Positions 1 through 45,861 of a stretch of DNA of 64,000 nt are shown piece by piece. This DNA comes from Psammoneis japonica (Eukaryota): assembly GCA_008632985.1 (NCBI GenBank), contig QPGO01000019.1, forward strand, positions 434,001-498,000, read 5' to 3'. Within the stretch, counting starts at the first letter, position 1, and each line of letters starts with the position of its first letter. The position numbers and the translations under genes are program-made. Under the pieces are notes generated by a model. The model was not told where the DNA came from, ran no database searches, and worked only from the letters and a program-made list of their open reading frames with translations.

Positions 1-550
1 AGACATCAAGACGACCCCGCAGCTGCGTGCCAAAATCCTGGGGCACGTTTTGCTTAAATGGGCGTTGCTTTAGAAGTGCTCAGAATTGTGGGACAGTCAA
101 TGGCAGCAAGACACCTGCAGAACAACAGCTTTCCAATGGTGTCTTTTTTATTTCCATGCCCCCAGCAGATCCGAATCAGCATTCATGCATCCAAACGACC
201 CCGCAGCTGCGCGCCAAATTCCTGTTGCATTTTGCTCAAATGGGCGTTGCTTTAGAAGTGCCCAGAATTGTGGGACAATCAATGGCAACAATTTTGTCTA
301 CAGAACAAGTGCTTTTCAATGGTGTTGCTTTTGTTTTCATGCCTCAAGCACAACCGAATCAGCGTTCACACATCCAAACGACCCCGCAGTTGCATGCAAA
401 ATTCCTGGCGTGTTTTCATGAACCAGGCGTTGCTCCAGAAGCACCAACAGCTTTGCAACAATCAATGGCGATGCTTTCACTGCATCTACAGAACGAATGC
501 TTTCCAATGGTGTCATTTTGTTTTCACACCTGATGTACATCCGATCTTGT
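1..550. repeat. Tandem repeat, ~183-184 bp unit, about 3 diverged copies (truncated by window start)
   Basis: Anchor ACGACCCCGCAG recurs at 11, 195 and 378; downstream GGCGTTGCT..AGAAG and TT.CAATGGTGT motifs recur with similar spacing. Confidence 0.85.
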
Positions 551-1907
551 GGCTTCCTGCAGGTCGAATGCCAAAGTCAGATGAGCCATTGAAAACACGC
601 TGTTTGACCCAAATGTGAACTTGCTAAACAGCAATTAGATCCAAGCCAACAATGGGAAGAAACCAATCATTTGGAACTTCATTTTGTGGATGGTTTGGTG
701 GTGGCATTGGATTTGGCAGGCTTTTTGCCCAAAGAAGAAAAAACTTCCTCAAACACGCTCGTCCTCTTTTCTGCTTTTTTCCACATTGCTCTTGAGCATG
801 CACAGCTCCCGCAACGTTTCCACATCCAGCTTGCACTTCTTGGATGCTTGCAGCTCAGGGGAGCCGAAGGCCACTCCACTTGATAGATTTGAAAACAAGG
901 ACTCAGCCCCTTTCTGGGCGTCCTCCAAATTCTTCACAAAATCCCTTGACCGACAGTCTCGCTTGCTGATCCATCCAGGTGCCCAACAGCTGCAACTGTG
1001 GTCAGCTCAACGTCACAGCTGCAGGCTGAGTGCTTGCCTCCATTGAAAGGAGCTGGAGGTGTGAGACCAAGCTCCAACTCACACCTCTCGTTTGTTGTTT
1101 TTCTCATCTTGCTGCTGCTTTGTTGCGCTCCTCTTGAGTCTCATCTTTCTTTGCTGCCTGTGCCGAAAGCCATGCTGCATGGAGAGTCTTTGCCAGAACC
1201 TCACATCCCGTTGCGTCCTTGTCAGCTCCTTTCCCCGCCTTTGCATCATGCTTCTTGGCCAAAACACAAATTCTGCGGATGTTTGCTTGGCGAAAATTGC
1301 GAATTTTGCTTTCTGCCTGCTCTGGGGCACTGCAGCCTCTGGCTGGTCCATCAACAGGATCATGGAACAAGCCAAAAACCTCCTGCCATCTTCGATCACT
1401 CTCACCATCTGGCATTGGCAAGTGGGCATTTCGCGTGCTGATCAGCGTCAAAAGATCCCAACACAGCTCTTGGCTGACCTCTTTTGTCAGGTTTGGCAGG
1501 CGCCTCTTTCCAGCCATTGCCCCTCAATGTCAGCCTCCTTTGGGATGTTTGGAACCTCCAACAAAGGTTCTCTGTCAGCCATGTTGTTGCATGCAGAGGG
1601 CTTCACCCCAACAAGTGTCACCTCCCCATCAACACAACCCTCCTCTCCAGCGGCATGCCCAGTTGGTGGAGAGTTTTCATCTCCAACACCAAGTTCATCT
1701 GGGTGCATTAGAGCATCAAGAGCACTGGCGAAGCCACAGGTTGTTTTTTTCTCTGCCATGGTGCTGGTGTCACCGCATCTCATGGCCCGTCGACATCTTT
1801 TTTCTTTTTTGGAGCTGAGGGTTCTCGAACAATTCATGTGAGCATCTTACGAGAGGATTGCGCAGGAGATGTGCCACCGATGTTCCGAGAGAAAATGACT
1901 TCAAGTG

Positions 1908-1994
1908 CTGAAAATCGGCTCACAAGTCATGTGATCGGCAAAATGACGCGACTTCGTTGGACTTCGCACGGCTTCGCGAGGCTGCCCGCCAGCT
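1908..1994 (+). repeat. ~87-bp dispersed direct repeat, copy 1 (copy 2 at 8588-8674)
   Basis: CTGAAAATCGGCT...GAGGCTGCCCGCCAGCT occurs at both sites; most differences are CG/TG/CA changes. Confidence 0.85.
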
Positions 1995-2034
1995 CATTGA
2001 ATCTAATGACCCAAAATGCCTGATGAGCAGAAAA

Positions 2035-2387
2035 TGTCATGAGTTGTCGAAATTGTCGTGAGTTGTCGTGAGTTGTCATGAGTTGTCGTGAGTTGTCGGG
2101 AGTTAAGTGAGAAATGTCGTGAGTTGTCGTGAGTTGTCGGGAGTCAGGTGAGAAATGTCGTGAGTTGTCGGGAGCGCTTGCACATCATGTGCATGCTGCA
2201 AGCAATTAAATTTGACAATTTGTGTCACTTCATCAATGTGCACATCCCAAAGATTTGTCGCGAGTCAAGTGAAATTTGTCGTGAGCAGTCGTGAGTTGTT
2301 GTGAGTTGTTGTGAGTTGTCGTGAGTTGTCGTGAGTTGTCGTAAGTTGTCGTGAGTTGTCATGAGTTGTCGTGAGCTGTCGTGAGTC
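2035..2387. repeat. 10-bp minisatellite (GAGTTGTCGT)n in two arrays (~2035-2172, ~2255-2387)
   Basis: Directly visible tandem units, with CGT/CAT/TGT variants at the CpG. Confidence 0.95.
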
Positions 2388-2604
2388 ACAAGTGCCATTT
2401 AGGAGTCATTGTGCTTTCAGCGATGAGAATGCCTCGCCACATCTTTTTTTTTTAATGTGTGTTTTTAACAACAAATGGAAATTCACACATGTGTGTGTGT
2501 GCTGTGCCATTGGTTTAGCGACAAAACACGACAATTGACGGCGATTGTACATTGTCGAGGGATTGACAATTTTGAAAAGATGGTCTTGAGATGGCGGATT
2601 CGGG

Positions 2605-2779
2605 TGAATGAGACAGGCACATGTGCTCCATGACTGAGTGTGCCCTCTCTGACACATGTGTGTCAACTGACGCGTTGGACACACCGAGAACCGTTGGGTT
2701 TGTCCCGCATCAGCGATGATCGGGTCTCTCCTCGGTTTTCTCACAACCTTTGTCAAGTCATCTCAAGCTAGATCTTGCA
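2605..2779 (+). repeat. 5' LTR
   Basis: Ungapped alignment to 8401-8575, 155/175 identical by manual count. Confidence 0.97.
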
Positions 2780-3109
2780 CTGTAATTGCAGTCATTGTTG
2801 TGGCTTGTTCATTGCATTGTCAGTTTTGTGACAACGCGAAGAGTGCTCGTGCAGAAAATTTCATTCAAAATCGATCAGAATCGCAGCGCAATCATGCTCG
2901 TGAAATTGGCGATTCGGAGCAACGTTTGTTTGAACTCGAAGCTCTTGTTGCTGCTGTTGAATTCGTTCTTGTTTGGTTGTTGATTGTTCTCATTGTGTGG
3001 ATCAATTGGGAGTGCCTTGTTTCATTTATCTTGTGGATCATTGATTGTTTGATTGCTGAAATTGTTCATCGCCATGTGTCAAGAAGCCTTGGAGAAAGCG
3101 TGTGTTGAG

Positions 3110-4230
3110 TGTAAGATGACCAAAATTCGTGGATTCTGAGTTGCAGGAAGTGAAACTCACTCAAACCTTTGATGATGGCACCAAACTCTCAAAAATGTGT
3201 CCTGTTTTTACAGGAGAGCATGGAATTGAATCATCATTGCACGTGGAGGACAGGTTCCGGAAGGTGGCAAGACAACTGAATTGTGACACCGGAACAGAGT
3301 TGTTTGATGCTTTCGAGGATTGTTGTCTCCAAGGTGCTGCAGAGGCAAAATGGCAGAACATTGCAGTGGGCATCCAACAGAATCAATGAATGGCAGCTCG
3401 ATTTGGTCAAGCCATCTCGGCCTGCCATCTGTGCTGCGTGAAACCGACAGCTCGCGACACGATGAAGATGCATTTGCCTGCTTGCAAAAAGCCTCACTCA
3501 GCAGAATCTGAAACTCATGTTGATCGCATGGAAACGTTGTTTCATTGTGCCAACCGTTTGCCTGGAACCGTTCCTGAACTTACAGAGCAGGAGCAGAAAA
3601 ATGTCATCTTTCATGCCTTCCCTTTGACCTGGCAGCAGTCCTGCATTCATGTGGGCAGGAACCTTGTTGCGGATTCTATGGTGGACATTCAAGCCCACAT
3701 GAGCAACAAAAATGGCAACGGAGGGAACTCCAGTGACAAAAAGGGCAACCGTGACAAGAAGGAAAGCAAAGGCCAACCAAAGGCTGGTGATCCGTGTCCG
3801 GTCCTGTGGCACCATGGAAGGCTCACGTGGGGCCAGTGTCATGACAATCTGAACAACCCCAACCATCGTGGGCCTCAAAACGTGGCGGTCAAGGAGGAGG
3901 CCGTGGCGGTGGAGGTCAAGGCGGAGGTTGTTTCCAAGGAGGCCGTGGTCAAGGCCATGGAGGCAGTGGACGCTTTGGTGGTCGTGGCAACCAGAGCCAA
4001 GGAGGTCGTGGTGCCTGTCATGACAACAACAACAACAACAGACATCAGAATGACAATGGCAACCAAGGTGGTGGTCAACACCATCACAATGAAAACAACA
4101 ACCGTGGAGGCCAAGGTCAGGCTGACAGCTGTGCTGCTCAAGCAGACAACATGAACAATGACAACCAGGCTCGAGAAGCTCCTCGTGGTGATGCACACCA
4201 TTTTGACATGATCGGATGAGGCCCTCCACG
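3110..4230 (+). pseudogene. Gypsy gag relic
   Basis: Fragments 3129-3389 and 3390-4154 (CPVFTGEHGIE, FHAFPLTWQQ, knuckle-like CPVLWHHGRLTWGQC); Gly/Arg-rich tract in an adjacent frame; TGA stops and frameshifts. Confidence 0.8.
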
Positions 4231-4519
4231 TTGCGGAGGTGTGATGAGGTTTCAGCCAGATGGGCGGTTTCCTTGGCAGTTCTGAGAAGAAGGAGCTGAA
4301 TGCTCCAGAGCTGAATGCTCCCAATTGCCCATGAGAGAAGCATTTGTTGATGAGAATGATTGTGTTTTGCCTGAATGAAATGATGGATGTTTTGCTTTTG
4401 ACTGTTTTGAAAATCCTGATGAATTGTTGCCTGTTGAATTTGAAAATGATGCAGAAAATTGCGTGAATGAAGAGGGGAGTGTGTTTGATCAAGACGCATT
4501 TGAACACAACATTCCTCTC

Positions 4520-7500
4520 CCCAAAATGAACTCGCAAGTCTCGCGCACCGCGTTGGTCCCATCTACACCACTTGTTGCAAAATCGATTCAACGGCATGAG
4601 TCGAATCGTGTGATGCATGTTTGTTTGATTCTGGAGGATCTCACACTGTGATCTCGTCTCAAGTTTTACCTTGTTGAGCCACACCATCCATTGACGAACA
4701 TGGAGTCCGAGCTTTTCAAACAGTTGCAGGTCCTTTCCAGTCGGGTCGTTGTTGGGCAGCCTTGTCAAGCGACATCGTGTTACCAGAATTCGACAAGACT
4801 CGGAGGATTGACGGCTGTGTGGCTCACGTGTTCGATGCTCTGTGTGCACATGATGTCATTTTGGGTCAAGATTTCTTGGACAAGATTGGCCTCAACTTGA
4901 GTTGCGACACAAAGACGCTGTGATGGCTAGACCGTGTGATCCCAATGAAGGAACCTCGTCATTGGTCCAAGTCCCACAATTGGCGTGTGGCTCTAGACCA
5001 AATGGATGAATTTGATGAAGATTGTGAAGACAAGTTGGACTGCGGACACAACGACGGATGTGATGCCTGCATGCTCGACACCAAGCACAAAGCGACAGGT
5101 CCGGCGGAAGTGGTTCGGACCTCAGACCATCTCACGGAAGAGCAAAAGAAGAAGCTGCCATCAGCATTGGAAAAATGTTCAACCTTGTTTGACGGAACGT
5201 TGGGCCACTGTTCTCATGAAAAGGTGCACCTTGAAGTGGATGAAAATGCTGTTCCATGTCACTCAAAACCGCTTCCTGTTGCTCAAGTTAATGAAGAAGC
5301 GTTCAAAAAGGAGTTGAAACATTTGGTGAATCTCGGCGCACTGCGACCATGTGGACCTGCGGAATGGGCAGCCGGTGCCTTTGTTGCTCCAAAGAAGGAT
5401 GGCTGGGTGCGATGGGCATCCGACTTTCCAGAGCTCAACAAGGTCCTCAAGCAGAAAGTGCATCCTCTGCCAGTTGTTCAAGATGTGCTACAATGGAGAG
5501 CGGGCCACAAATTCTTCACGAAACTGGATCTCACTGTGTTCTACTGCAACTTGGAATTGGACAATGAAAGCAAGGAGCCAGCTACGATTGCAACTCCCTG
5601 CGGAAAGTTTCAGTGCTGTCGCATGGCTGTGGGATTGAAGCCAGCTCCAGACATTGCTCAATCCATCATTGAAAAGATTCTGCATGGTTTGGATGTTGAA
5701 ACTTATGTTGATGACATTGGCGCATTTGACACTGACTTTGATTGCCATCTCTCTTGTCTTGACAAGGTGCCACATCATCTCAAGGAGAATGGTTTGAAAG
5801 CCAATCCCTTGAAATGCGAATGGTGTGTTCAAGAAACCGATTTTCTGGGGCATTGGCTTGCTCCAACTGGCATCAAACCGTGGAAGAAAAAGGTCAAAGC
5901 AATTCTACAAATGCAACCTCCACGGAATGCCACTCAACTTTGATTGTTTCTCAGTGCAGTGACCTGCTGTCGCAATGTGTGGCCTCGCAGTTCTCACCCA
6001 CTTGCACCTCTGACTGAGTTGACAGGCAAAAGTCAGCTCCATTGGACAGAAGCATGTCAGAAAGCATTCAAAGAGATGAAGGCAGCAATGTCGCGGCAGA
6101 AGCATTGATGGCCCATCCCAACCACAACCTGCCATTCCATGTCTGCACCGATGCGTCAGACTGCCAGATGGGTGCTGCCATTGTTCAAGATGGCAAACCT
6201 GTGGCGCATTGGTCTAAGAAGCTCTTGGCGGCTCAACGCAACTGCTCAACAATGGAGAAGGAACTCCTGGCCGTCACCATGTGCTTCAAGGAATTTCGCT
6301 CAATGTCACTCAGTGCTGACATCACGGTTCACATTGATCACAAAAATCTCACCTTTTGCACTTTGAATGCGCAGCGCGTCCTTCGTTGGCAACTGTTCCT
6401 TGAAGATTTCGCGCCCACGTTTGAACATGTCAAAGGCAAGGATCACGTGCTCGCCAATTGTTTTTTGCCTTTGGAGGGGAAGAGACGCGTTCCAGACGCA
6501 GGTGGGAATCCGTGTGACATTGGGCCCATGGAATTCTGTGTGCAAGCTCCGCAGCAAAATCACACGGCAATTAAAATGTCAATGATCGCCAACAGAAAAT
6601 GAGGCAATTTTGCGAACACACAAGCTCACCCATGATCGAAGCACATCATTCATTTTTTGCTTGGCCAGTTGCATTCTTCAGACATTGAAGAATGTAACTG
6701 GTGCATTGTTGTTTCTGTAAATTCGTCACATGAAACGTCTGGGGCTTCGCAAAACAGCGAGTCTGGACAATTTTTTTAAAACACACGTAGAAATGTACGT
6801 GAGAAACACATGACGGATGATGAAAATTGTTTGTGTCACACGTCAGTGCTGCGAGCTGCCACCCAGGGCTGGAACGCGTCAAGAGCCTTGGGCCAAGCAG
6901 TGAACGCAAAGGAAAAATCATTCATTTTAAAAAGTTGGATTCCAGTGAACTGAGCAGGACCGAGGAAGAGGAAGATTTGGAGTTGGGCGCTTGCAGGTTC
7001 AAGTGTTGCCGTGCTCCAGTTGATCCCACTGATGAGTCTCACGCCGCCTCTTCCTCTCTGTTTGACAAGCCCGAATTGTTTGAATGCTTTTTGAATTGCC
7101 CGATGCTGGACAAAATGCCGAATCCTGCCGAGATGCTGAGGATGCAACAGTTCCAGTTTGAAGACCTCCAACTGAACCAGCAGAGACAACAGAATCCGCA
7201 GCAGTTCGTGGTCAAGATTGTGAACCATCGTCCTCTCATTTGTTGTCGTTTGCATCTGAATGATCCACCTGGAGCCTGGAAAATTTGCATTCCTGCTGCG
7301 TTGTTGCCGGATGTTGTTGCATGGCATCATCGCGCATTGGGCCATTGTGGAGTCGTGCGATTGCATGAAAGCATTCGGAATCACATGTGCCACCCCACAT
7401 TGCATCAATGTTGTAATGAATTTGTTTGCAATGCATGTCAACGATTTAAACAACTGGGTTCTGGATGTGGAGAGTTGCCTCAACGTCAAGCGCCGTTAGC

Positions 7501-8290
7501 TCCATGGTCGGAAGCAGCGGTTGATCTCATTGGACCGTGGAAAATGCCAATTCAAGACCAAGAGATTGAACTCAGTGCTCTCACTTGTGTTGATGCTGTC
7601 ACTGGATCAACTGAACTCATGCACATTGACAACAAAACTTCTCAGCAGCATGTGACCAACAAGTTTCGCAATCTTTGGTTGGCTTGTCATCCCAGACCAA
7701 ATTGATGCATCCATGACAATGGTGGAGAATTCAGTGGTTGGGAATTTCAAATGCCACTAAATCAAGCGGGCATTGCTGATGCACCAACAACATCTCGAAA
7801 TCCCACAGCCAACTCTGTTTGTGAACAAATGCACCAAACGGCAGCTGATGTCTTGTGCACTGTGGTTGTCGCTAACCCACCTTTGAATGTTCAACAGGCC
7901 AAGCAGATTGTGGACAATGCCCTTGCCACAGCCTCTTGTGCTTTGCGATGCTCCCACTCAAGGTCGATGGGTGTTTCTGGTGGAGCTCTGGTGTTTCAAC
8001 GTGATGTGATTTTGGACCTGCCTGTTGTCTCCAACCTTGCAACGATTCAAGCAAACCGACAAGTGTTGATCAATGAGAACCTGCGACGACAGAATGCAAA
8101 GCGTCATTCCTGCAATTGTCCAGTTGGTCAAGATGCATTGATCAAGTCGGTGGATCCTTCAAAGTTGGAAGAACAAGCTTGTGGTCCATTTCAAATTGTG
8201 CAAGTCCACACCAACGGGACTGTTTTGGTGCTGTGAGTGCTGCAAGTTGTTGAACGAATTGACACTCATCATGTGGTGCCACGTTAGAGT
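4520..8290 (+). pseudogene. Gypsy pol relic: aspartic protease, RT, RNase H, integrase
   Basis: LFDSGGSH protease motif at ~4625; RT PKKDG, TKLDL, YVDD, FLGH; RNase H TDASD, EKELLA, DHKNL; integrase H..LGH, C..CQ, VDLIGP, DNGGEF, NP.ANS.CE. Confidence 0.95.
6484..6880. mobile_element. 397-bp non-autonomous TIR element (MITE) nested in Gypsy pol
   Basis: Perfect 12-bp TIR GACGCGTTCCAG/CTGGAACGCGTC (imperfect to ~22 bp); 4-bp TSD AAGA at 6480-6483 and 6881-6884; removal restores ...LEGKSLG... in pol. Confidence 0.9.
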
Positions 8291-8388
8291 TGAGGGTTTC
8301 TTCCCAACATCTGGGTTCCCTTCTCCGTGCGCATGTGGTTTGAATTTTAGTCAAGTGGTTCCAATGGTGTGCGTGTTCCCAGCACCAT

Positions 8389-8400
8389 GGAGGGGAAGAG
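8389..8400 (+). other. Polypurine tract
   Basis: GGAGGGGAAGAG directly abuts the 3' LTR. Confidence 0.9.
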
Positions 8401-8575
8401 TGAATGAGACAGGCACATGCACTCTGTGACTGAGTGTGCCCTCTCTGATGTGTGTGTGTTGACTGACGTGTCAGACACACCAAGAGCTGTCAGGTTTGTC
8501 CCGCATCAGTGATGATCGGGTCTCTCCTTGGTTTTCTCACAACCTTTGTCAAGTCATCTCAAGCTAGATCTTGCA
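8401..8575 (+). repeat. 3' LTR
   Basis: Matches the 5' LTR and is followed by TSD TCGGG. Confidence 0.97.
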
Positions 8576-8587
8576 TCGGGAATGTCC

Positions 8588-8674
8588 CTGAAAATCGGCT
8601 CTTACGTCGTGTGATCAGTGAAATGACGTGACTTCATTGGACTTTGCATGGCTTTGCGAGGCTGCCCGCCAGCT
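8588..8674 (+). repeat. ~87-bp dispersed direct repeat, copy 2
   Basis: Matches 1908-1994. Confidence 0.85.
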
Positions 8675-9705
8675 AAATCCGTCAATGGTTTCTCCAAAGT
8701 TGCATGAAAACAAGTCGCACAACTCGGCAAGGACACTCCGCTGGCCAGTGGCTCTCGACAGGCAACAAAATGAAGCAATCTCAAATCGAATTGTGCATCA
8801 CGCTGGCCAAGGAAAAACAACACATTGTTTGTTCATGATCAAAAACAATGCCTGGGTTCTGTTGCGAAATGACTGCTCCGATTGTGTCACCCTTTTACAC
8901 ACTTTGACACCTCTGTGCTTCCACCATGCAAAACTCATCAAACCACAATGAGAAAAAGGCTCCCGTGGCACCACCATTGCATCTCCGTGACTGTGCACAT
9001 GTGGCTCCACCAACCATTCAGGAATGCCAACCATGTGTGGATTGATTGTGCCCCAGCAGAGTTGTTGGTCTGAAGCTTCTAACGAGTCTCTGCCAAACTG
9101 GCAAAGAAATGAGACCAGCATGACCAGATGCATGCATGGCAGTTCTGGACAATGTCACAGAGAAACAGCAGGTGCAGGATCACACCTGGGCTCCATGCAC
9201 TTGCATGGAGCTGTGAGAGCTCTGTGGCCATGCACCACAAAGCCTGAGAAGAAGCCCCCCCCCCCCCCCCGAAGAACCCCAAATGATCAGCACAGACTTG
9301 AGCCCAGCAGATTTGTTTCCTCCTGTGTTTTTGCTTTGGTGTTTTTTAGATGCTCAGACCAAGGAGATGTTGACACATCAACCCACCAAGGAAGGCCCGC
9401 AATCGCCATGTTTTGGTGGCAGAGGCTCTCTGTTCTTTATAAAAGGTTAACTGCACTGTGTCCAGCTAGCCAGAGTGGGGCTAGAGCAGAGCAATCTGTT
9501 CGTTCATTATTTTACACATCACCGTCTGTCCATCCCACCGTTCCACTCATCGGCGTTGCGTCGGCCGGTTGTCGGTTTGGAAGGTTGTCATTTGTCATAA
9601 AGAAAAAGAGAGCACGGGACCAAGGCACAAGCCGTTATTGTTGCTTTCTCTCTTGCTTTCTCTCTACATACCGGTAGTAGTTCGTTGCTTACTATTCTTG
9701 TTGGC

Positions 9706-11130
9706 ATGCCGAAAGAGAACTCCAAGAGTCAGTTCCATTTGTGGAAGTCATCAGCATGTCCATCCAGTGCAAAAGCGATGCTGAAGATTTTTGGGGTCCT
9801 CGCTTTCCTATCGCTTTTCGTTGTCTCTGTGTTGCACGGGATGCTCGAATCGAGAAACATGGGAAGCCCAAATGCAGAGTTCCTCGCGGAGGTTTCTCAA
9901 GACCCCCCAACAATCCCTTTCTACGTTTACCCACTAGAGCAATTTCCCTCGTTTTGGGGTCCAAACAGCACTTGTGACTACTCAGTACTTCGTACCTCAA
10001 AGCTCGACGCTTACGTTCACGCGATTCAAGCCATGAAACGGCATCCCTGGAGGACAATGAACCCTGAGGAAGCACTTGTTGCATTCATACCAATATCGAT
10101 TGACCCTTGGAAACGTGGTCAATGCCCAGGAGTGACGGAAAAGGACATCTTGGAGGAATTACAAAAAGTCATGAAAGAAAGTCCCATTTTTCCAAGCAAG
10201 CGGCACCTCTTTATTGCGCATGATTTTAGAAGTTTTTCGCTGGCCGAGAAGATTACTTATTCCTTGTTCTCGCCAACAAGTCTAATCTGGGGTGGAAGGG
10301 AAGAAGGTATCGGTGACTGCAAGATTTTGATTCCCCACACATCCAACTACGCATCCCTCATGTCGCTGCGCAGCCCAAATGAATGGAGAACTCCCGGATA
10401 TGCTGCTACGACACCACGTCCTTACTCGATCCATATGGTGGGGCAAGTGGACAGCAGAAAAGCGTATAGGGATCGTAAGGCTCTCTTCTTGTCAAACCGG
10501 ACAACCAGTGTCCCGCATTCAATTATTACAACAACCTATGTTCCGGAGGCCCATGATCGGTTTATAGAGACGGATCGGTTTCGATTTTGCACTTCTTCAA
10601 ACGACACCGACAGATGCCTGAGGAAGGAAAACATCGACCGCTTTGAAAGTCAGCAAACACAAGAAATGTCTAATTTTACCCTTGCTCTCAGAGGCGACAA
10701 TTTGAGCTCTGACAGATGGATCAACGGCATGTCAGCTGGGACTGCAATGATCCAAGTTATCAGTAATGACGCAGGATGGAAATGGTTTCCATATCCTTGC
10801 GCCATTCCATGGGAAGATTTTGTTCTTACCATCAATCAGACAGAATTTCGTTCCGATCCAGTCGGTAGCATCAATCGATTGATCTCGCCGAAAAATCTTC
10901 CCGAACAAGAGCTGCTGAAGCTGCAGAGGCAAAGTCTGCATTACGTGTCGGACATTGACTGGACCAGTCATTCCTCACGATCATTGGAGAATCTCCTGAG
11001 AGAAGCCTTCTTCATACCTTGTAGCTCATACGATCCCTTGCCCCCTTTGCGAGAGCAAGCTTGGTGTAACGAAAGTCGCCGACAAGCACGTCAAAGGGCT
11101 AAAGATCAATTGCTACTTGTCACTCCTTAA
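9706..11130 (+). CDS. Exostosin-like glycosyltransferase (GT47), type II membrane protein
   Basis: N-terminal TM; FYVYPL, NPEEA..AFIP, RHLF and S.FTLALRGDNLSSDR..GT..PYP.AIPWEDF match the exostosin pattern. Start is ATG 9706 or 9778. Confidence 0.85.
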   Translation: MPKENSKSQFHLWKSSACPSSAKAMLKIFGVLAFLSLFVVSVLHGMLESRNMGSPNAEFLAEVSQDPPTIPFYVYPLEQFPSFWGPNSTCDYSVLRTSKLDAYVHAIQAMKRHPWRTMNPEEALVAFIPISIDPWKRGQCPGVTEKDILEELQKVMKESPIFPSKRHLFIAHDFRSFSLAEKITYSLFSPTSLIWGGREEGIGDCKILIPHTSNYASLMSLRSPNEWRTPGYAATTPRPYSIHMVGQVDSRKAYRDRKALFLSNRTTSVPHSIITTTYVPEAHDRFIETDRFRFCTSSNDTDRCLRKENIDRFESQQTQEMSNFTLALRGDNLSSDRWINGMSAGTAMIQVISNDAGWKWFPYPCAIPWEDFVLTINQTEFRSDPVGSINRLISPKNLPEQELLKLQRQSLHYVSDIDWTSHSSRSLENLLREAFFIPCSSYDPLPPLREQAWCNESRRQARQRAKDQLLLVTP

Positions 11131-11517: not shown

Positions 11518-12951
11518 TTATCTACTCTGCACGTTAGCATCCTCCCGCTCTGGAAAGAGTAATAGGGTACCACCCAGTCGCACATCAAGTCTTCTCTGCA
11601 TGCATTCTCCCGACTGCAGCTCGCATTCGTACTTAACATAACAGCACGAACCGCAATTGTTGTGTATTATAAGCTCTAAACTATCCCTCACGGCAAGAGC
11701 AGTCACAGCGCTCTTTGTAACCAACAGCCTCCGACCCCGCCACAAGAAGTTGGCACCAGCTTACATTCGTTTTGGGCGGCGTTTCGCTTTTAAATGAGAG
11801 GTTCCGTAGAAGGCGTGACATCTATCAAGGTTCCAGGGCTGTGGCAATCGTACAATCTGAGGAGGATCGCGTTTCATTTGAAGCAAGGCCCAGTACACCC
11901 CTTGGTCACCATGAGGGGATTGCAAGATGCCATCTCCTGGATGTCCCCATGGTGAACGAGCGTGTCCTTTATTTGCCTCTTGTTGAGTTGCAAGCGCCGT
12001 CATGAACTGGGCTGGGTAAGGGTCGTTCTTTTGCAGTTCAGCCAAGTTTAATACTACAATGCAACTGCACATATTCCCAGATGCATTTATCTCCTGTCCT
12101 TCATTATGAAGAGGCATTCGATAGAGCCATTTATCTTGCTTTGAGGGCAGCTGAGGGATTAAGCCCGCCGGATCCGTCATGAAGATCATGTCAGTGTCAA
12201 CGACCACCACCGGTTCGTCTCTCCCAGAAAACAAAGGCAATCGGTGAACGAAAAGCTTGAGCGCTCCCCAATTGCCGCTGTGGTGAGTAACGTTGTATTT
12301 CATGCCCTCGGTCTCTGCTGCAAGCCAATCAGAATCGATAACTTGAATAATCACCGTAAATTGAAACTTAGTCTCTTTCAAGACTGCAAACATCTTTTCG
12401 AACAATACCGAGCCGGCCTCATTTGTAAGCAAAACAAGCTCCACGTCCACCGACGACAGAAGCAACATGCTGTTAACCAGCGACCGAACCTCATCAAATA
12501 TGTCGTCGTCGCCTTGAGTTGCATCTTCAATTCCACAAGAAACTACAAATGTTATGCGGCGGTCGCGGTTGCCCAATTGTTTATGAGCAATCTGGCCGTG
12601 TGTTTTCAATGGCTCGTTCATCGTTGAGTAATGATGGAGCTTTACAGGATGTAGCTCGACTTGCGTCGACCACCAGGTGTTGAGCCACTCCAAGCGGTAA
12701 TTCTTATAAAAGTCAAAGAACACCCCAACATTATCTTCAAAGTGTGCGCAGTTGCGATGTAGCATTCCTACGCAGTCGCCTCCATCACATGATGGAGGCC
12801 TTATTGAATCATCTTCCTCGACCAACTCGGTGCGCTGATGCATGCTTTTTTCCAGCTTGGAGAAACTTCCAAGCTGATGATGCACAATGATCGCAACAAC
12901 GCAAAGCAAAGGCAAGCATTTTAAACTCTTTCGGTATGTTTTTGGTGCCAT
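11518..12951 (-). CDS. GT8-like glycosyltransferase (LARGE/xylosyltransferase-like); predicted intron 11681-11764
   Basis: N-terminal TM; HHSG.WGALKL, VVVDTD, GDQG, WN motifs. A GTAAG donor overlaps the ORF stop and an in-phase AG acceptor adds an IIHNN exon. Confidence 0.75.
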
Positions 12952-14069
12952 CCTTCGATTGTGCTGCACTGAGTATTACAAAGAGAATAACGATCAAATC
13001 TGTGGCAAAAATCGTGTGAAAGGGTTGGGCGAAAAGACTCGAATAGAGATGTGGAAAGGTCCAACGAGAGTCGTAAGGGAAACAAAGTCACTGATGGGAC
13101 GATCAGGGACGATGAAAAGAGAAGTGACTCCTGAATGAAATTGATTGCTTCTTTGCTCTTTGCCTCTTTGCTGTACGGAGTTACGACTATGTAGCACAAT
13201 GTGAACTGTAAAAAACGTCCCGAACACCCGTATCGCATTTTTTGTACATCGATATTTAATGATAACGGCTTTTAGCAAATAATTAGGGCATTTTTACAGA
13301 TGTAACCCATACAATTTGTTGTCAAAAATCGATACTTGTAACACAATTAGAAGATTTTTTAATTAAATGTTTCATATTCAAATTAAGACTCAAATTTTGA
13401 TATTACTTTTTCAATTCCGACTGCTTCAATCAATAAACGAGTTCGCATGTTTTATTAAAAGACGTGGCCGGCGTTTCGGTCCATTTTGGCGGCTCCGACA
13501 TTTGAATTTACTTAAAACACCAGACATTTCTATAGGGCTTCAGTTCGTAGAGCAATAAATACGTAGACTGGTACAAATTCTACAGCAGGAGTCATGTGCA
13601 GTCATTTTACATACCAATCATTCAGACATTCACTATATATTTAAATACAAAGTATGCAGTTTGTAATAGTCTATTTTGCACATTGTGCTAGTCGTAGCCT
13701 CATACAGACGCGACGCGATACACCAAACCACGCCACGCCGCAGTACCGTAAATTACCGGACAGTACGCACGACGGTATGTACTTTATGTAGGGCCCTACT
13801 GTACGGTACTTCAGTCGTATGTACGACTGCATGCTCACCTACCGTGGCGTTGTGGACGTTCAACGGAAATTACTAAGAGAGGGCAGGTTGTTTTTCGATG
13901 ATAGTGAGGTCTAAACCGAAAAATGATATGATACATATATTAAGATTTTTAGCTTTGTGATAAACTTTATTTACATACGCAGGCGATAGTAAAAGATTTC
14001 ATGAATAATTAATATATTAGTACTTGAAATTAGTATATTAAAATTTCGAATTTTCAATTTGTACGAGCG

Positions 14070-17000
14070 ACAACTGCTTCTTTTCTCACCACCTCGCATC
14101 TCGCACACCAACAACACAATGCACTCTCCTCAGACACTGGCAATTGGGCAAGCAATGGGGAGATGGGGAAGAGGCAGTGCCCACCCATCAGAGGGGGGGG
14201 GCATCATGTTTGTTGGCTGTGGTGCCCTCGCACACTCCTCTCTGGTGCTCTTTTGTTTTGCACAAGAAAAGCAGCAAAAGCAGTGCACACGAGCTTTCCT
14301 GCAATGTCGCTGAATGCCATGTGAGGATCCCAGTTTCTGCAATTCTCCTGAGTGCTCCCCACACAGGTGTCACTGTGCACAATGTGAGCCAAGTGCTGCT
14401 GAGGTTCTTTCTGTGAAAGCGAGGTCACCAGTGCCAAAACATCTTTTTTTTGTCAGCCAAAAATGTGATGTGAAACAAGCTGGCATGTTTGTTCATGCAA
14501 AAAATGGTTTTTTGGGGCACTTGGTGGGAAAGGTGTGCCAAAAACTTGATCTCCCCACCTTGCCCTGAAAAGAGAGTTTGTTCTGCCCTTTGCAAGTCAC
14601 ACGCGTCACATGCTTGCTCGCATGCTCTGCAGCTTCCATTGTGCAGCACTGGGCAATGCCACAATTTTCAACTTAGATGAACCTCTGAGACCATTAAAAA
14701 TTCTCATCACTTTTTGTGCACAAAAGGCCATTTGGGGTGCCACTTTGCCAACACTCTGCAGTGCAATGTTGTTCTTGTTTGGACCTCCAAGCTTCAGCAC
14801 AAAAAATGGCTTCAAGCATGCTCAAAAGCATCAAGTGCATTTTTTATCTTGAGCAATGCATGCATTGCTTGTTACCTTGCTGCAAAGAATCTTGTTGTTG
14901 TGGAGCCACTTCTGGCCCACACACTTTTCATTGCTGCAACAAAGTTCTTGCACATTTTCAGCATTTGAAAATGATGACAACAGAGCTGCCACTTCGGCTG
15001 CTGCCCTCAAGATGACTTCTGGCAGAACAAAGCATTCCAGCACAATCTCAAGCATTGTTTCTTCAAGTCCTGCAGTTGCTGGCTGGACTCTGAGGTTCAG
15101 GCTTTTGCAAGCACATGCTTTGCCTGAGAAGAGAGCGCACATGCTGTGCAATGTGTTGCAGATGTGCCCTGGTGTGTTCACCCATGCCCATGCACTCAAG
15201 GCTTTGCACAAGACTCAACTCATCTCTTTTTTTTCAGACTGAAACAATGCCACCTAAAAAGCTTCAATTCCTCACACAAAAGAGATGCAAAAATTCTCTG
15301 TTTTCCTCTGCCTGTTCAGTGATGCAGACCAGGCCGCACACATCTGTCGACCAACAAAACACAAATTGTGCTTGCCTCCCTCCTCCACATTTTTTGCATC
15401 TTGCAATGCAGCAGCTCTCACAGCTTTCTTCCACTGGGGCATCTCCTTCTCCAGGTGACTCCATCCCCTCCCCACCTGCAAGCAAACATGCTCTTGTCAC
15501 TTGCCAAGGAGCATGTGGAAGACCACATCTGGCATGCATGCTGCTGCCCTGCATGACCAGGTGGCACACCCACTCCTGGGTGGGATGCATTTCAGTTGAG
15601 AACAACCAACAAGGAGGAGGGTGGCTCTTGAAAAGAAGTTTCTGTGTCATTTTGCAACTGCCATGATGTGCTTGGTGGCTGCCAGTTCCTTGTCCACTGC
15701 CGTTCCTGCAGTCTGCATTCACATCTCCTTGAAACAGCAGTCTCAAATCAAAGTTGTGCAATGGCACTGACTCACAAGACAGCAAGAGAATGTTCAAAAC
15801 AAGCAAAAAACTGATTGTTTGTTGTGCGGTGGAGATCCTGTGTGACCATCTTTCTTGTCCCGAAATCAAAGATTGCACACCAAAGTTTGCTTTGACACAA
15901 CAATCTGTTTCTGTCACAGACATTGAAATGTTGAGAGCTGACCACTTGAGTCAGGCTGCTGGTCGAATTGAAGAAGAAAAGATTCCAGCTGTCCAGTGAG
16001 AGCTTTGACTTTTTGGAGATGTGATCTCAGCCATTGTGCAGTTGCACAATTCATCAAGCTGGCATGGAAATGAGAGAGGTGCCAATCATCTTTCATTGGT
16101 TTTGTGAGCCAATCTAAAGAGCTGCTCTTACAGAGAGATCCTTGCATTGGAGAACAGCACAGAATCAACCTGCTTCTTGGGGTTCAATGTTGCTGTTTGT
16201 GATTGTTGACCTGTGATGCTGCCAACTTTGATTGTCCATGCACACATCAGGTGCTTCACAGACTGCAAAGAGAGCAAAAATCCAATCTGCAGTGTCAAGA
16301 AGCCAGCTGTGCATTGTTTGGTGTTTGTCCAAACTTTGTTCTCATTTGATTTCTGGAAGACAAAACCTCACACCAACCATGATGCCTCTCTTTCCAACCT
16401 CTTGGTGTCACACACAGCAATGAAGAAATGTCATCTCATGTGAAGCCTTCCTCGTTGGACCTTGGAAACATTGCTTGTGTTCATTGGTGATTGCCGCCCC
16501 ACAGCAGAAAAAATGCAAGCCCACTTTGGAGCCATGTTTTGTCCTCTCCAAAGCCTTGGGCTCCACTTGCTTGCCCCTTTTTGTCAGGAGATGCTTGAGA
16601 GGAGTGTTTGGAACATTCTCTGGAAGGGGGCATGCAGGGGCTGACGACTCCACCACTGCAATGGTGCCTTGTTCCAAGGTGGTGGCCATTGTCATTTTTT
16701 GGTTTCTGGACAAAGGCTTTGGTGCTTTGCATGCAAAAAAAAATTGTCGCAGGGAGAATGGTGCGCAACATCATGGTTGCATCACAACTGTGAAATTGTT
16801 TTGCAGGATTTGGTCACAATGAATTGCATGTGTGCAATTGTGGTGCAATCAGCTGTGGATGATGCCTCCAAACAGAGGTGTGTTTTTGTCATGTCCCCTC
16901 TCCTTTGAATGCATTGCAGCAGGAAGCAAGAGGAGAGTCTGATGTGTGATTCATGCACATTCAAAGTGCAAGCTGCACAAGCTCTTTTGTTTGCAAACTC

Positions 17001-18560
17001 TGGTTTGCAGCCAGCTGGGAGACTCCAATGCTGCTTGGCAAACCTGTTTGCAAGCACATTTTGCAAACATTTTGCAAACCAAAGAATGAACCCAGTTTGC
17101 AAACTTCTTTGGCAAACTGCAAACACTGCTGTGAAGTCAAGCCCCATGTGCCAGCACCAGCCAAAACCTTTTTTCTCAGTTGAAAATTTGATGTGTGCTC
17201 AGCTGGCACATTTGTTCATGCAAGAAACAGTTTTTGTGAGGCACATGGGAAAGGTGTGCCAAGAGCTTGATCTTCCCACCTTGCTCTGAAAAGAGTTTTG
17301 CCCTGCCATGTGCAGGTTGTGTGCCTTGCTGCTTGCTCATGTGCCGCTGTTGCTTCCATTGTGTGGCAACTGGCAATGCTGCGTTGTCATCAATGCTGTT
17401 GCAGACAGCACAAGGTGTGCAATGCAGCATTTTCGACTTGGAGAAACCACTGAGATTGTTGCTGCAATGTGGGCTTTGCAGGGCTGCCATCATGCAAATG
17501 TCCTCAAGACTTTCTGCATGCCAAAGGCCGCTTGGGTGCTTGCCAACCTTCATGCTCATGTTTGGAGCTCCAAGCTTCAACACAAAAAACAGCATCAAGC
17601 ATGCTCAGAAATGCCAAGTGTGTTGTTCTTTATCTCCAAATGCATGTGCTGTTGCCTTGCTGTGAAATTGAAGATGGCAACAGAGCTCTCACTGGCTGCT
17701 GCTCTCCAGACAACTCCTGGAGCAAAGCACACTGGCGCAGTCTTAAGTGCTGGTGTTTTTAAGTCCTGCATCAACTGGCTGGACTCCAAGAAGGGTCAGA
17801 GGCTTTTGCAAGCATGCTTTGCCTGACATGAGAGCACACACTGTGTGCAATCCATTGCTGAAGGTGTGCCCTGGTTTCAACCATACACTCAAGGCTCTGG
17901 ACAAAAACTCATCTCCCTTTTTCCAGACTGAAACAATGCCACCAAAAAGGTTTCAATTCCTCACACAAAAGAGGCAAAGACTCTCCATTTTTCTCTGCCT
18001 GCCTGATGATGATGCAGACCAGGACAGACAAATCTGCTGTCAACCAAAAAAACAAATGTCTGTGCAATCTGGCAGCAATTTGCCTTCCTCCTGAACATTT
18101 TTTGCATCTTGCAATGCAGCAGCTCTCTCAGCTTTGGCATCTCCTTCTCCACATGGATCCTTTCAAAACTGCAAGCAAATGCATTGTCACTTAAATTGGA
18201 GCATGTGTGGAGGCGCAGACCTTGCGTGGCATGTCTGCTGGTGCCCTGCATGACCAGGTGGCACACCTGCTTCTGGGTGGGATGCAGTTCATTTTAGAAT
18301 GACCAACAAGGATGGCGGCTCTTGGCAGCAAATGTTCTGACATTTTGCAACAGCCATGATGTGCCTGGTGGCCAGGAGTTCCTTGTCCACCACCACGCCA
18401 ACAGTCTGCTTCACGTCTCCTGGGAACAGTCTCAAATAAAACAAGTTGTGCAATGGCAATGACTCGCAGGACAGCAAGAGAACCTTCAAAGCTTGCACAA
18501 AACTGATCTCTAAAAATGATTTTCGGAGGCTGTGAGAACCCATGTGGGCCTGCGGAGACA
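14070..18560. repeat. TpA- and CpG-depleted repeat block 2 with a diverged ~1.35-kb direct duplication (~14470-15815 vs ~17195-18510)
   Basis: Shared anchors TTTGTTCATGCAA..GGAAAGGTGTGCCAA, CAGACTGAAACAATGCCACC, GACAGCAAGAGAA at ~2.7 kb offset. No recognisable protein. Confidence 0.85.
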
Positions 18561-27196: not shown

Positions 27197-28840
27197 TCAT
27201 TCGACCAAACCAGCACGTAGCAGCTTTTCCTTAGTCGACAAGGGCTCGTGGCTCCCGTCAACATCACTCAGGATGACCTCGGTCAACGGCAAAGGGTCGC
27301 CGTATCGACAATGGTTCTGAATGCGGGAGAACGACGCAAACCTGTTTTGTTCTTCCTCCTGACGAACGCGTTCTTCATCCGCTACCACATCAATGCACAT
27401 TCTCTTTCTTGTTGGAGCAATGCTCTTCTTGAGCTTTCCTTCGGTCTTTCCCCCGCATTTCCCAGGCGTGCTTTCTCGCTTTCTCTTCACTGCTTCGTTC
27501 ACCTCAGACTCCAGAGACTCACCGACTGAAAATCCCATGTCAAGAAACTCCTCCTCAGAAAGATCGCTTCTTGCGGACAGCTTGTGCAGCCACGTTACCA
27601 CGCAAGTTATACGACCGGGTTCAATTTCACGATGGGAAAGATATGCGACATTCTTCTTTGGAAAATGAACCAAAACATGGAGACAGAGCCCATCACACAA
27701 AATGGAGTAGAGAACTTCCGGAAGTTGCTTGTCCTTGTTGAGTAACAAAATAGATCTGGCGAGCGATTCTGCAACAAGTTGAGACTTGCAGTCCATTGCT
27801 GAGTATTTCAATTTCAATGCTTGTTTCATTTCGACATGGTACGACGAATACAAAAAAGCGTCGGTTGCATTGCTTTGTAGAGCTTTCCTGCAAACAGCAA
27901 TGTCGCTTTTGACTGAAAGCTGTGCTGGTACTCCTGATCCCTTGCTATTCTCAATTTTGCCTTGTTCGGCCAAGTACTCGTTGCACACTTCAACCATAAC
28001 AACCACCGGACTCATTCCAATAACATCGGTCACTCTCAAATCACCATTATCTCCATCCAACTGGCGTACAAGTTCACCTAGCCAGTGAGAGAACAGAGCT
28101 TGGACATCCAACTCTGCAAACTTTCCCGGTCGCAAAATTTGCTGAATCATTTCCAGTCGCAAGGCGTGGCCTGTAAGGTCTTCGTCGTCGGCTATCTTCA
28201 AAACAGTGCAAAGGCTCTCGTCGATACGACATGGATCCCCTTCGAGGACCCGTGATGACGACGGAGAGAACACCGGATTTTCTCCAAAAGAAAATCTCTT
28301 ACATTCGATTTGCGTTTGACCTTTGGCGAACATCATAAAGTGGACGGAATCGCCCTGTAATTGACTAATAATTGATCTCGTACTAAACAGAGCATTTGTC
28401 GTAAGAGTTTCATAAGACTGTTGCATTCCATACGTTGCATAGGAGCTCGGATCGAGAGCTCTCGGCAATGTGTATACTTCCGCATTCAGCGATTGTGCAA
28501 TCAGCACATCAATATCTCGCGGACTGATGCTGGTAAGCGTGTAAATATCGGAGAGTTTCATTTGGGCTCGATCGCAAACATGATCTTTTAAGAGGCCGGC
28601 ATGGACTGTCCCGGTATTAATTGCGTCGAGAAATCTTTCTTCAGTTACTTCCGGATTTCTCGAATCAAGATATTGTGCCAAATCATCCTTGGTTATCTCC
28701 TCTCGGATACTCTCTGGAAGCTTGTCGAAATAATAGTTCACCTTTTCGCCGTGTACCTTGGGAGGCAGGAGGTCCAACAGCACTGAGGAGGGCCTGAACT
28801 TTCCTGATGAAGCGTTGCTGAGCGCCGCCGGTTGACTCAT
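27197..28840 (-). CDS. Intronless 547-aa protein with a putative PD-(D/E)xK nuclease-like domain
   Basis: Long ORF with normal Tyr/TA content; KSDIAV...HVEMK...QLVAE...SILCDG pattern. Confidence 0.65.
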   Translation of the reverse strand: MSQPAALSNASSGKFRPSSVLLDLLPPKVHGEKVNYYFDKLPESIREEITKDDLAQYLDSRNPEVTEERFLDAINTGTVHAGLLKDHVCDRAQMKLSDIYTLTSISPRDIDVLIAQSLNAEVYTLPRALDPSSYATYGMQQSYETLTTNALFSTRSIISQLQGDSVHFMMFAKGQTQIECKRFSFGENPVFSPSSSRVLEGDPCRIDESLCTVLKIADDEDLTGHALRLEMIQQILRPGKFAELDVQALFSHWLGELVRQLDGDNGDLRVTDVIGMSPVVVMVEVCNEYLAEQGKIENSKGSGVPAQLSVKSDIAVCRKALQSNATDAFLYSSYHVEMKQALKLKYSAMDCKSQLVAESLARSILLLNKDKQLPEVLYSILCDGLCLHVLVHFPKKNVAYLSHREIEPGRITCVVTWLHKLSARSDLSEEEFLDMGFSVGESLESEVNEAVKRKRESTPGKCGGKTEGKLKKSIAPTRKRMCIDVVADEERVRQEEEQNRFASFSRIQNHCRYGDPLPLTEVILSDVDGSHEPLSTKEKLLRAGLVE

Positions 28841-29129
28841 TTGCGAGTTGCACTTGCTATAGCGTCCTTGGGAGGCGAGCGAAGCTAAGGAAGCGCAGTA
28901 TGCGGGTTGCGCTCTAGCTAGTGGTTATGACATGGTACTTTATTTTGCCCTTACGATGATACGTGACGGACGGTGACGGTGAAATAGAGCAAAACAGCAA
29001 ACTTTGAACGAATCTGTACTGTATCTCGTCTCGAGAGCGCGCGGTCTCGTCTGTCCGATGATGTGTGGAGGGAAAGAGGCGAGCCGAGGGGGGGCAGTGG
29101 ATAGATGGTGGATGGTGGACGGTGGAAAA

Positions 29130-37281: not shown

Positions 37282-38039
37282 TTGGTAGGTGGTCAGTATT
37301 GGATCATGAACCACCATGTAGTCATGATTATTGATTTGCGACAAAGCAATGATGTATGCATGGAACAAGAAGGCCGACGATTAGCTATTAATCGACAGTT
37401 TTAGAGAATGATTGAGATTACCTTATCATCGCAGGATTATTGTTAGGGTTTTTGTTGTATCAACCCAACAAACGGACAGCATCTGTGACTCGGTAGATGG
37501 GGCTAATTATCATCCTCATCAGATTCGCATAAAGCCTGGAATTGCACAATAGCATGGGAAGCAAGCACTGTCATCGGTCACAGTACGAGATTTCACGACT
37601 GTCTTCTTTCCGGAGTTAGTGAAAAGATTGAAACTCATCTTTCAACTTACTAGTTCCTACTTTCCGCCGTACCAAAGGCTCTTTCACAGTGCAAAACATA
37701 CTCGGCATCAACATTTTCCATCGGCATTTTGAAATCGTCATTGCTGATCAATTTGAGGGGAATCGAAAAATTCAGCTCACTTTTTGCTTTTTATTCGGGC
37801 TGCTCACAGAAGCTTCATCGTGTCGCCTGGCTACTTGTATTTTGAGAAAACGCCGCGTACATCGTCTCCTTGCGAACACGCTTCGCATCCGCACCGACAG
37901 TGCTCAGCCTTCAATCTTTCATCTGACGTGTCGTTGCAACCAATCGAACCTGCCTCCACCATTGGGGTGCCCACTGCACTCACTGGCTGACTTGGGCAAT
38001 TTAGAATTTACTCCAAGGGGGCTTTCTCATCAAGTCTAA

Positions 38040-45640: not shown

Positions 45641-45861
45641 CAGCATACCGTACCGTACCGTACCGTACCTCTCTAGAGTAGAGAGAGAACAGAGGGCTGT
45701 TCGTTTTCGCGCTGGTCATCGAACAATGTTCGGGTCATCTGGGGCTTAATTCCCATCGTCACAATTGAATGACTTTTGACCCATCGCAACATTGTTATTT
45801 TCATTTTATTTCTTTATGTGGCTATGTTTTCTCATCACAATTTTGATTGCAGGTTCCCGCA

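Follow-up and report, generated by a model that had tools for sequence, protein, structure and literature searches.

The stretch of DNA examined here, 64,000 nucleotides of Psammoneis japonica (contig QPGO01000019.1, positions 434,001 to 498,000; hereafter the window), harbors a Ty3/gypsy retrotransposon at 2605-8575 that is bounded by two long terminal repeats (LTRs). The differences between the two LTRs, the loss of the dinucleotide TpA in blocks of the window and the codon replacements in the pol region of the element make it fairly probable that a chromosomal, region-targeted mutator, which turns TpA into TpG or CpA, acted together with CpG decay on each LTR independently. The analysis covers the 64-kb window, the assembled contigs of the public runs X1-X3 and related gypsy loci from metagenomes.

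The 5′ LTR (2605-2779) and the 3′ LTR (8401-8575), both on the forward strand, align without gaps at an offset of 5796 over 175 bp and show 20 differences in the assembled letters. All 20 are transitions, transversions and indels are absent, and the two LTRs become identical when they are recoded as purines and pyrimidines. Seven pairs of neighboring differences are TG/CA doublets, in which one LTR reads TG and the other CA (LTR positions 20-21, 25-26, 49-50, 51-52, 60-61, 72-73, and 91-92; termed swaps in the following). CG faces TG or CA at five further sites (69, 82, 88, 110, and 129), and the remaining single difference is an A/G at position 86. At all five of the CG-type sites the CG sits in the 5′ LTR and never in the 3′ LTR; across the pair, three sites read CG in both LTRs, five only in the 5′ LTR, none only in the 3′ LTR, and seven are swaps. 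The 5′ LTR, which has TG...CA termini, retains all 8 scorable CpGs (observed/expected ratio (O/E) 0.69 for CpG and 0.10 for TpA), and the 3′ LTR has lost 5 CpGs that its counterpart retains (0.28 for CpG and 0.09 for TpA). The same pair was also recovered by BLAST and by a repeat search of the window. A third LTR copy was not found in the window, the purine/pyrimidine alphabet included, and a YR-degenerate LTR pattern gave no matches against the metagenome contigs. Chance is an unlikely source of the pattern because 20 transitions out of 20 have a probability of 3e-4 if a transition share of 2/3 is assumed, and at least 7 adjacent pairs among 20 random sites of 175 have a probability of 0.0017. 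The alignment in the initial annotation, with its 20 transitions and the positions of the doublets, the CG-type sites, and the A/G difference, was reproduced exactly. Its proposal that each swap goes back to an ancestral TA or CG, both palindromes, for which the two LTRs were hit on opposite strands after integration, agrees with the intact target-site duplication and with the fact that only 1 of the 20 differences lies outside CG, TG, and CA.

The element has the anatomy of a complete insertion, and all of its features lie on the forward strand. Identical copies of the target-site duplication TCGGG, read directly, stand to the left (2600-2604) and to the right (8576-8580), and a polypurine tract, GGAGGGGAAGAG (8389-8400, read directly), adjoins the 3′ LTR. 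The internal region (2780-8388; TpA O/E 0.08, CpG O/E 0.62) contains a gag-like open reading frame (ORF), protease, reverse transcriptase, RNase H, and integrase. Pfam returns the pol domain order RVT_1, RT_RNaseH, Integrase_H2C2, which is the same in the full-length homologs. The closest relatives are gypsy pol proteins, which reach 61-63% identity; among them, the named ones belong to the diatoms Mayamaea and Chaetoceros. The reverse transcriptase ORF (4924-5943, RVT_1) retains its YVDD motif, and most of its other conserved tyrosines are now histidine or cysteine. The RNase H ORF (6018-6602, RT_RNaseH) lies in another frame than that of the reverse transcriptase, and the integrase region (6824-8236) consists of two ORFs in one frame, with Integrase_H2C2 at 6824-7705 and a TGA codon (7703-7705) between them at a position that is arginine in the homologs. 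Two frame breaks leave reverse transcriptase, RNase H, and integrase each in a frame of its own. Pol also has two stops of the CGA-to-TGA type, at positions where the homologs carry arginine. Judged by its termini, domains, and reading frames, the element is a Ty3/gypsy retrotransposon that arrived as a single insertion with a 5-bp duplication, and the copy is dead. A recombinant element with the LTRs of two insertions was considered and set aside, since the 5-bp duplications match.

The direction of the TA loss can be read from the pol region, for which four ORF pieces of the copy were aligned to 28 full-length homologs. At 22 conserved tyrosine columns the copy keeps tyrosine at 2, carries CAY (histidine) at 9, and carries TGY (cysteine) at 9; the 28 homologs keep tyrosine at 18-25 of 24-25 columns and show 0-1 replacements by histidine or cysteine each. 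The alignment covers 597 conserved columns, 158 of which are changed in the copy, and 76 of these changes lie one transition away from the conserved residue. The 76 single-transition replacements divide into TA>TG (25), TA>CA (19), CG>CA (14), CG>TG (8), and others (10), which amounts to 44 of the TA type vs 22 of the CG type. The other 82 changed columns, which are not single transitions, reflect ordinary divergence within the family. CGN is retained at 18 arginine columns and CpG-decay products are found at 12, and per site the copy has lost ~0.90 of TA and ~0.40 of CG. With its tyrosines replaced to this extent, it would have been unable to make its own enzymes, and nearly all of the TA loss would hence have come after the last transposition. 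A short repeat in two copies gives the same direction. The copy in a depleted block (59010-59240, forward strand) carries TG or CA opposite the TA or CG of its partner in a normal block (51640-51860), and TA and CG occur only in the normal-block copy (CA/TA 2, TA/TG 3, CA/CG 3, CG/TG 2, CA/TG 3). Read from these codons and repeat copies, the TA loss proves to be mutational and to run from TA to TG or CA. TpA O/E is 0.25-0.85 in 77 related gypsy loci from metagenomes vs 0.09 in the element, a comparison that is weak on absence elsewhere, as the loci were sought with intact peptide motifs and mutated copies would escape. Several of these loci have a CpG O/E of 0.26-0.36 with a TpA O/E of 0.59-0.79. 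CpG has therefore been lost in relatives without a loss of TpA, which makes the two losses separable and the TA loss no trait of the family.

The loss extends beyond the element. A 500-bp profile divides the window into six blocks with sharp borders, depleted of TpA and CpG, and gene-bearing normal stretches between them; the genes are spared. The first block (1-9500) encloses the gypsy element together with its two flanks, and TpA O/E stays at 0.00-0.24 throughout this block and rises to 0.52 at 9501. The second block (14000-18500; TpA 0.00-0.31, CpG 0.07-0.33) holds old, diverged repeats with 8, 8, and 3 TG/CA swaps. Three blocks follow in the 500-bp profile (29000-35000, 38000-39500, and 44000-45500), and the last one spans 58500-63500 (TpA 0.00-0.12, CpG 0.00-0.30). 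Over all blocks TpA O/E lies at 0.00-0.24, apart from values of up to 0.31 in the second block, CpG O/E ranges from 0.00 to ~1.0, and TpG and CpA are enriched 1.6-1.9-fold; the normal stretches have a TpA O/E of mostly 0.4-0.9 (range 0.27-1.21) and a CpG O/E of 0.8-1.6. The 28,005 bp of the blocks contain 151 TA vs 1,423 in the 35,495 bp outside, and CG counts are 547 inside vs 2,016 outside. The gypsy element itself has a TpA O/E of 0.09 and a CpG O/E of 0.61, and in older-looking blocks both dinucleotides are nearly gone. As the element has lost nearly all of its TpA and kept part of its CpG, and the older-looking blocks have nearly lost both, the loss of TA is the faster process. Its extent in the copy, ~90% of TA, stands against a single LTR difference outside CG, TG, and CA sites.

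Inside the element, a stretch at 6484-6860 (forward strand) breaks the pol alignment and is very high-copy in run X1, as judged from word depth and composition. Its summed word depth in X1 reaches 48,711-99,622 vs 2,000-4,000 in the rest of the element and ~70 for single-copy DNA, and many X1 contigs have loose ends at 6483/6484 and at 6650. TpA O/E is 0.21 and CpG O/E 0.95 in the stretch, vs 0.07-0.08 and 0.53-0.61 in the surrounding element (Fisher p=0.018). The stretch is probably a younger nested insertion of a high-copy element or satellite. That it is less depleted than the element that hosts it fits a process still acting in place.

Both strands are affected. The outcomes at TA sites of pol are nearly equal on the two strands (25 TG vs 19 CA), and a runs test found no strand-wise tracts of TG or CA (28 runs vs 22.6 ± 3.2 expected). 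For the bases next to TA, flanks were scored as purine (R) or pyrimidine (Y) only, a class that transitions cannot alter. The survival of TA per kb in the blocks relative to the normal stretches is 0.03-0.06 at RTAY sites, 0.03-0.16 at sites with one good strand, and 0.26-0.57 at YTAR sites. Among 23 half-sites of the one-good-strand kind, 18 have the inferred hit on the T-A-Y strand (p=0.011); at symmetric RTAY sites the two strands share the hits 9:9. These counts show, as far as the surviving and replaced sites can be read, that both strands are hit and that T-A-Y is preferred.

In the proposed mechanism, TpA would be converted to TpG or CpA (A:T to G:C) in transposon islands until near saturation, with ~90% of the TA of a copy gone, and the adenine in T-A-Y would be the preferred target. 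CpG would be converted to TpG or CpA more slowly (~40% in the copy), for which the deamination of methylated cytosine is the simplest explanation. Because TA and CG are palindromic, the strand that is hit would decide which of the two products arises. The LTRs, identical at insertion and hit independently afterward, would come to read TG/TG, CA/CA, or, as a swap, TG/CA; most of the seven swaps would originate from TA and about one from CG. The enzyme may be an adenine deaminase that acts on DNA and leaves hypoxanthine to be read as G, its targeting may follow silent chromatin, and the CpG part may be methylation decay. Two observations point to silent chromatin rather than homology as the guide: the repeat copy in the normal block is untouched, and the nearly single-copy flank at 8789-9500 (depth ~100) is depleted.

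The alternative that survives best retains the DNA-level process at TpA and replaces its chemistry by a modified thymine that mispairs with G, for example an oxidised one such as 5-hydroxymethyluracil or 5-formyluracil. T to C on one strand is indistinguishable from A to G on the other, so that the sequence data fit both chemistries, and thymine-oxidising enzymes and a TpA-biased hydroxymethyluracil are known in other protists. The flank rule, however, reads simply as a T-A-Y strand of the adenine, although R-T-A for the thymine is equally possible. Overall, a modified thymine is a possible but rather unlikely source of the changes.

An artefact of assembly or polishing would place the origin of the LTR differences in the data. 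The LTRs of a family with 30-50 copies could have been filled from other copies, or modified bases could have been misread. The k-mer contigs of run X1 amount to 140.7 Mb. Contigs that match the element family number 4,597; run X2 gives three matching contigs, and run X3 gives none. The family is abundant, with a summed depth of 2,000-4,000 across the interior vs ~70 for a single copy, the share of sampled words of the region that occur in X1 is 0.55, and at some places, among the matches listed, every contig differs from the window; all of this would suit an artefact. Against it, the single-copy depleted flanks are matched by X1 contigs at a word depth of 53-68, with one other letter at 1803-2092 and none at 8546-9000, and the latter contig starts inside the 3′ LTR and crosses the target-site duplication. 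Since k-mer contigs reproduce the depleted flanks, a misreading of modified bases by the platform is unlikely, and misreading by nanopore was set aside on the same ground. In addition, 562 matching contigs are at least 99% alike, and a scaffold gap of 7 N (62097-62103) suggests a scaffold made from accurate reads. Even LTRs that are mosaics would carry the transitions of the same mutator. Relative to the window, the copies of the family show 1,294 transitions (A>G 294, T>C 299, C>T 359, G>A 342) vs 302 transversions, and as they differ mainly by transitions, the same process marks the whole family. The block-wise loss of TpA and the tyrosine result are independent of the LTR pair. An artefact is therefore improbable.

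If methyl-CpG decay alone had acted, all seven swap sites would have been CpGs that were deaminated on opposite strands. The five sites with CG opposite TG or CA, the three CpGs shared by the LTRs, the depletion of CpG in the same blocks, and the 12 CpG-decay products at arginine columns are in line with this explanation, and CpG methylation of transposons is described in diatoms (PMC9998398). The LTR counts fit it poorly. A CpG-only model with a free rate for each LTR is rejected (G=6.65, chi-square p=0.0099, bootstrap p=0.008), that is, at p~0.01 with the 5-to-0 asymmetry included; a symmetric model on the three visible classes, computed by hand, gives p~0.08 and is not firmly rejected. At the coding-region rate of 0.40, the probability of at least 7 swaps among 15 visible sites is 1.3e-4, with ~1 CpG-derived swap expected. 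CpG decay also leaves unexplained the TpA O/E of 0.09, the 18 of 22 tyrosine columns with histidine or cysteine, and the 44 TA-type replacements, and relatives with a CpG O/E of 0.26-0.36 keep their TpA at 0.59-0.79.

A further copy of the family bears on the same question. It is a contig of run X2 (record 8, depth 66.5) that aligns to 2689-2779 and has a loose end matching 2659-2688, which differs from the 5′ LTR by 10 transitions and 1 transversion. At two of the swap sites, LTR positions 60-61 and 72-73, this contig has TA, which CpG decay does not explain. It reads TA at three further places, where the LTRs of the window carry TG/TG, CA/CA, and CG/TG. Two swaps and two same-direction outcomes at four clean TA sites are what near-saturating, independent hits predict. 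The flanks are symmetric (of the RTAY or YTAR type) at 6 of the 7 swap sites, a weak signal with a hand-computed, one-sided p=0.06. The initial annotation had named ancestral CG at all seven sites as the outcome that would leave nothing but methyl-CpG decay in the LTRs. As far as the sites can be tested, 2 of 7 are TA in the other copy, and the independent loss of TpA in pol and the poor fit of the CpG-only model to the LTR counts lead away from that outcome as well. CpG decay as the only process is thus improbable to a slightly higher degree than an artefact. Very probably at least some of the swaps come from TA, and probably most of the seven do; at five swap sites the ancestral state is deduced rather than read from a copy.

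A number of observations weigh against the combination of a TpA mutator and CpG decay as set out above. The rejection of the CpG-only model rests on 15 sites, and a hand-computed chi-square that ignores the asymmetry between the LTRs only reaches the p~0.08 given above. The TA readings at swap sites come from one contig and concern 2 of 7 sites, and 8 of the 10 transitions of this contig relative to the 5′ LTR are C:G to T:A, so that it may be a C-to-T mutated copy. Position 69-70 reads CG, TG, and TA in three copies, which takes two steps under any ancestor. No LTR site shows TA opposite TG or CA, where ~3 would be expected at 90% loss from some 15 TA, and one TA, in CTAG, survives in both LTRs. 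The flank contrast sets transposon blocks against genic blocks, and their starting composition may differ. The letters of the LTRs rest on the assembly, and the 0.55 of sampled words found in X1 refers to 1500-9500, the region of the element itself. Among the matches listed, all X1 contigs (8-9) carry CA for the TG of the window at 3103-3104, and all 14 carry TG for its CA at 7608-7609. Such opposite doublets imply two steps in the copy or the amplification of an already mutated founder, and hence a family history more complex than one TA ancestor per site. Finally, the deaminase and the methylation are putative in this organism.

An editing before integration, either A-to-I editing of the transcript by an ADAR- or ADAT-like enzyme or deamination of the cDNA by an enzyme of the APOBEC type, is very improbable: retroelements do pass through RNA and single-stranded DNA, and the preference for U-A resembles that of ADAR/ADAT targets (10.64898/2026.01.13.699255), but editing of a transcript predicts one direction and the same letters in both LTRs, whereas TG and CA outcomes are mixed without runs, the LTRs differ in both directions, and the depletion also reaches flanks outside the element, the nested insert, and a repeat that is no LTR. 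The earlier argument for a change in chromosomal DNA, as opposed to ADAR-type editing of the RNA intermediate, is borne out by the single depleted block that comprises the element with its flanks and by the approximately equal strands.

Within open-access literature text, TpA-directed hypermutation was found described only in a 2026 preprint on Bigelowiella natans, and a TpA signature in diatoms or other stramenopiles was not found. In mutation accumulation lines of B. natans, two integrated viral regions gathered 231 mutations, of which 230 were A>G or T>C, all of them on TpA (Mettrop et al., 10.64898/2026.01.13.699255). The rate in the viral regions was ~6e-7 per site per generation, about 1000-fold above background, the genome contains 124 clusters of TpA-poor, CpA+TpG-rich windows, and the authors hypothesize a DNA adenine deamination by an ADAT2-like protein (10.64898/2026.01.13.699255). 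The window resembles the integrated giant-virus and virophage DNA of B. natans, as reported there, in several respects. The change is A:T to G:C at TpA only and gives TpG or CpA depending on the strand, it is confined to clustered foreign or mobile regions with TpA depletion and CpA+TpG enrichment, and the chromosome rather than RNA is edited. Low-TpA genes of B. natans are enriched in reverse-transcriptase and DDE domains, and one block of the window holds the gypsy element. The two cases differ in the strength of the signature, with a TpA O/E of 0.0-0.2 over whole blocks here vs 0.45 in the B. natans virus region, and in the target, which consists here of LTR retrotransposons and unrecognizable repeat islands. 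A further difference is the loss of CpG in the same blocks here; none of the terms CpG, LTR, retrotransposon, diatom, or stramenopile occurs in the text of the preprint (10.64898/2026.01.13.699255). A T-A-Y flank preference is seen here and none is stated in the Results and Discussion of the preprint.

The host is a different one as well. The window contains many uninterrupted ORFs of 400-1150 aa, among them a V-ATPase subunit H, leishmanolysins, an M64 peptidase, and an AAA protein. The best matches of the V-ATPase H ORF are diatoms at 36-41% identity (a pennate and a centric diatom share 61%), and no chlorarachniophyte is among its matches. Judged by these ORFs, the host is intron-poor and diatom-like and is neither an animal nor a plant.

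The functional analog is the repeat-induced point mutation (RIP) of fungi with its RID/DNMT4-type enzymes. Like RIP, the process seen here would act on the DNA of mobile elements, on both strands, by transitions only, and at one kind of dinucleotide, and it would likewise destroy coding capacity and invalidate LTR dating. In the window, the ~120-bp repeat copy in the normal block is untouched, which may indicate that homology alone is not the trigger, but RIP requires longer repeats. The polarity is the opposite one. RIP changes C:G to T:A and creates TpA from CpA in Neurospora (PMC2621366), whereas TpA is destroyed here, G:C is gained, and CpA and TpG rise 1.6-1.9-fold; a RIP pattern of the Neurospora type is thus absent from the window, where TpA is depleted and the direction is given by the tyrosine codons. 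Diatoms carry RID-related DNMT4 enzymes, for which PMC9998398 gives the function as unknown. The conversion of CpG to TpG or CpA on both strands, stronger in older repeats, is shared with methyl-CpG deamination in vertebrates, plants, and diatoms, which differs in that TpA is also lost here. With the ADAR and APOBEC editing of retroelement copies in animals the window shares clustered transitions of a single kind, and ADAR prefers a U before the edited A (discussed in 10.64898/2026.01.13.699255). That editing acts on RNA or single-stranded cDNA, in one direction and before integration; here both strands, independent LTRs, and the flanks are affected.

Several further features of the window were noted. 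An 87-bp direct repeat with 86% identity lies on both sides of the insertion (1908-1994 and 8588-8674), and its copies differ by 10 transitions (7 of the CG type, 1 of the TA type, and 2 that form one TG/CA swap) and 2 transversions. Since this repeat flanks the insertion, the gypsy element would have landed inside an older repeat with a period of ~700 bp. A minisatellite of ~10-bp units (GTCGTGAGTT-like) at 2030-2390, just upstream of the 5′ LTR, retains CpG (O/E ~1.1) and is depleted of TpA. In the depleted blocks, long open frames without a Pfam match occur on both strands and in several frames (for example 3498-4562 and 3875-4855, both on the reverse strand, 32228-33244 on the reverse strand, and 61100-62038 on the forward strand), as is expected as a by-product when the stops TAA and TAG are lost. 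Pfam gave no families for 20 ORFs of the other depleted blocks, and Rfam gave no matches in the window. The gap of 7 N mentioned above lies within the last depleted block. The normal blocks hold a cluster of two or three leishmanolysin (M8) genes and an 1150-aa M64 ORF (41196-43832, 55239-58160, and 45847-49299). Within the M64 ORF, a tandem repeat (47038-47555) follows an ordinary substitution pattern and is free of swaps. Five ORFs of 352-632 aa without a Pfam family lie at 9601-11130, 11761-12975, 27197-28924, 35727-36785, and 52153-54051, also in normal blocks.

The LTR pair forms a natural experiment, as its members were identical at time zero and share the same chromatin; it records the strand symmetry, the flank rule, and how fast TA is lost relative to CG. 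As the LTRs would have been hit independently by the mutator, their divergence of 11% would measure the mutator and not time. The warning that LTR dating fails here, first given in the initial annotation, is borne out by the 20 differences, of which ~1 comes from ordinary divergence. Dating by LTR divergence and repeat landscapes based on Kimura distance would be wrong in such genomes, with an inflation of roughly 20-fold in the present case (20 vs 1). Gene finders would call long false ORFs in repeat islands from which TAA and TAG are gone, and homology searches would miss transposon proteins whose tyrosines have turned into histidine or cysteine. The T-A-Y rule offers a handle for finding the enzyme.

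On the evidence of the window, an extension of TpA hypermutation to a second lineage and to retrotransposons is supported. A wider proposal, which is plausible but held with less than even confidence, sees in the process a defense that mirrors RIP. A chromatin-targeted DNA adenine deaminase with a T-A-Y preference would erase nearly every TpA within the lifetime of a young insertion, beside CpG deamination or coupled to it, and the Bigelowiella system would be spread across the SAR group (stramenopiles, alveolates, and Rhizaria) and would be a major influence on the composition of repeats and on the ages that transposons appear to have. If true, the process is a rare genome defense that rewrites TA and, more slowly, CG in transposon islands, and that was previously described in one other alga (10.64898/2026.01.13.699255). 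In that case a second host, seemingly unrelated and with a signature far stronger and close to saturation, would show that the process is not the curiosity of a single alga.

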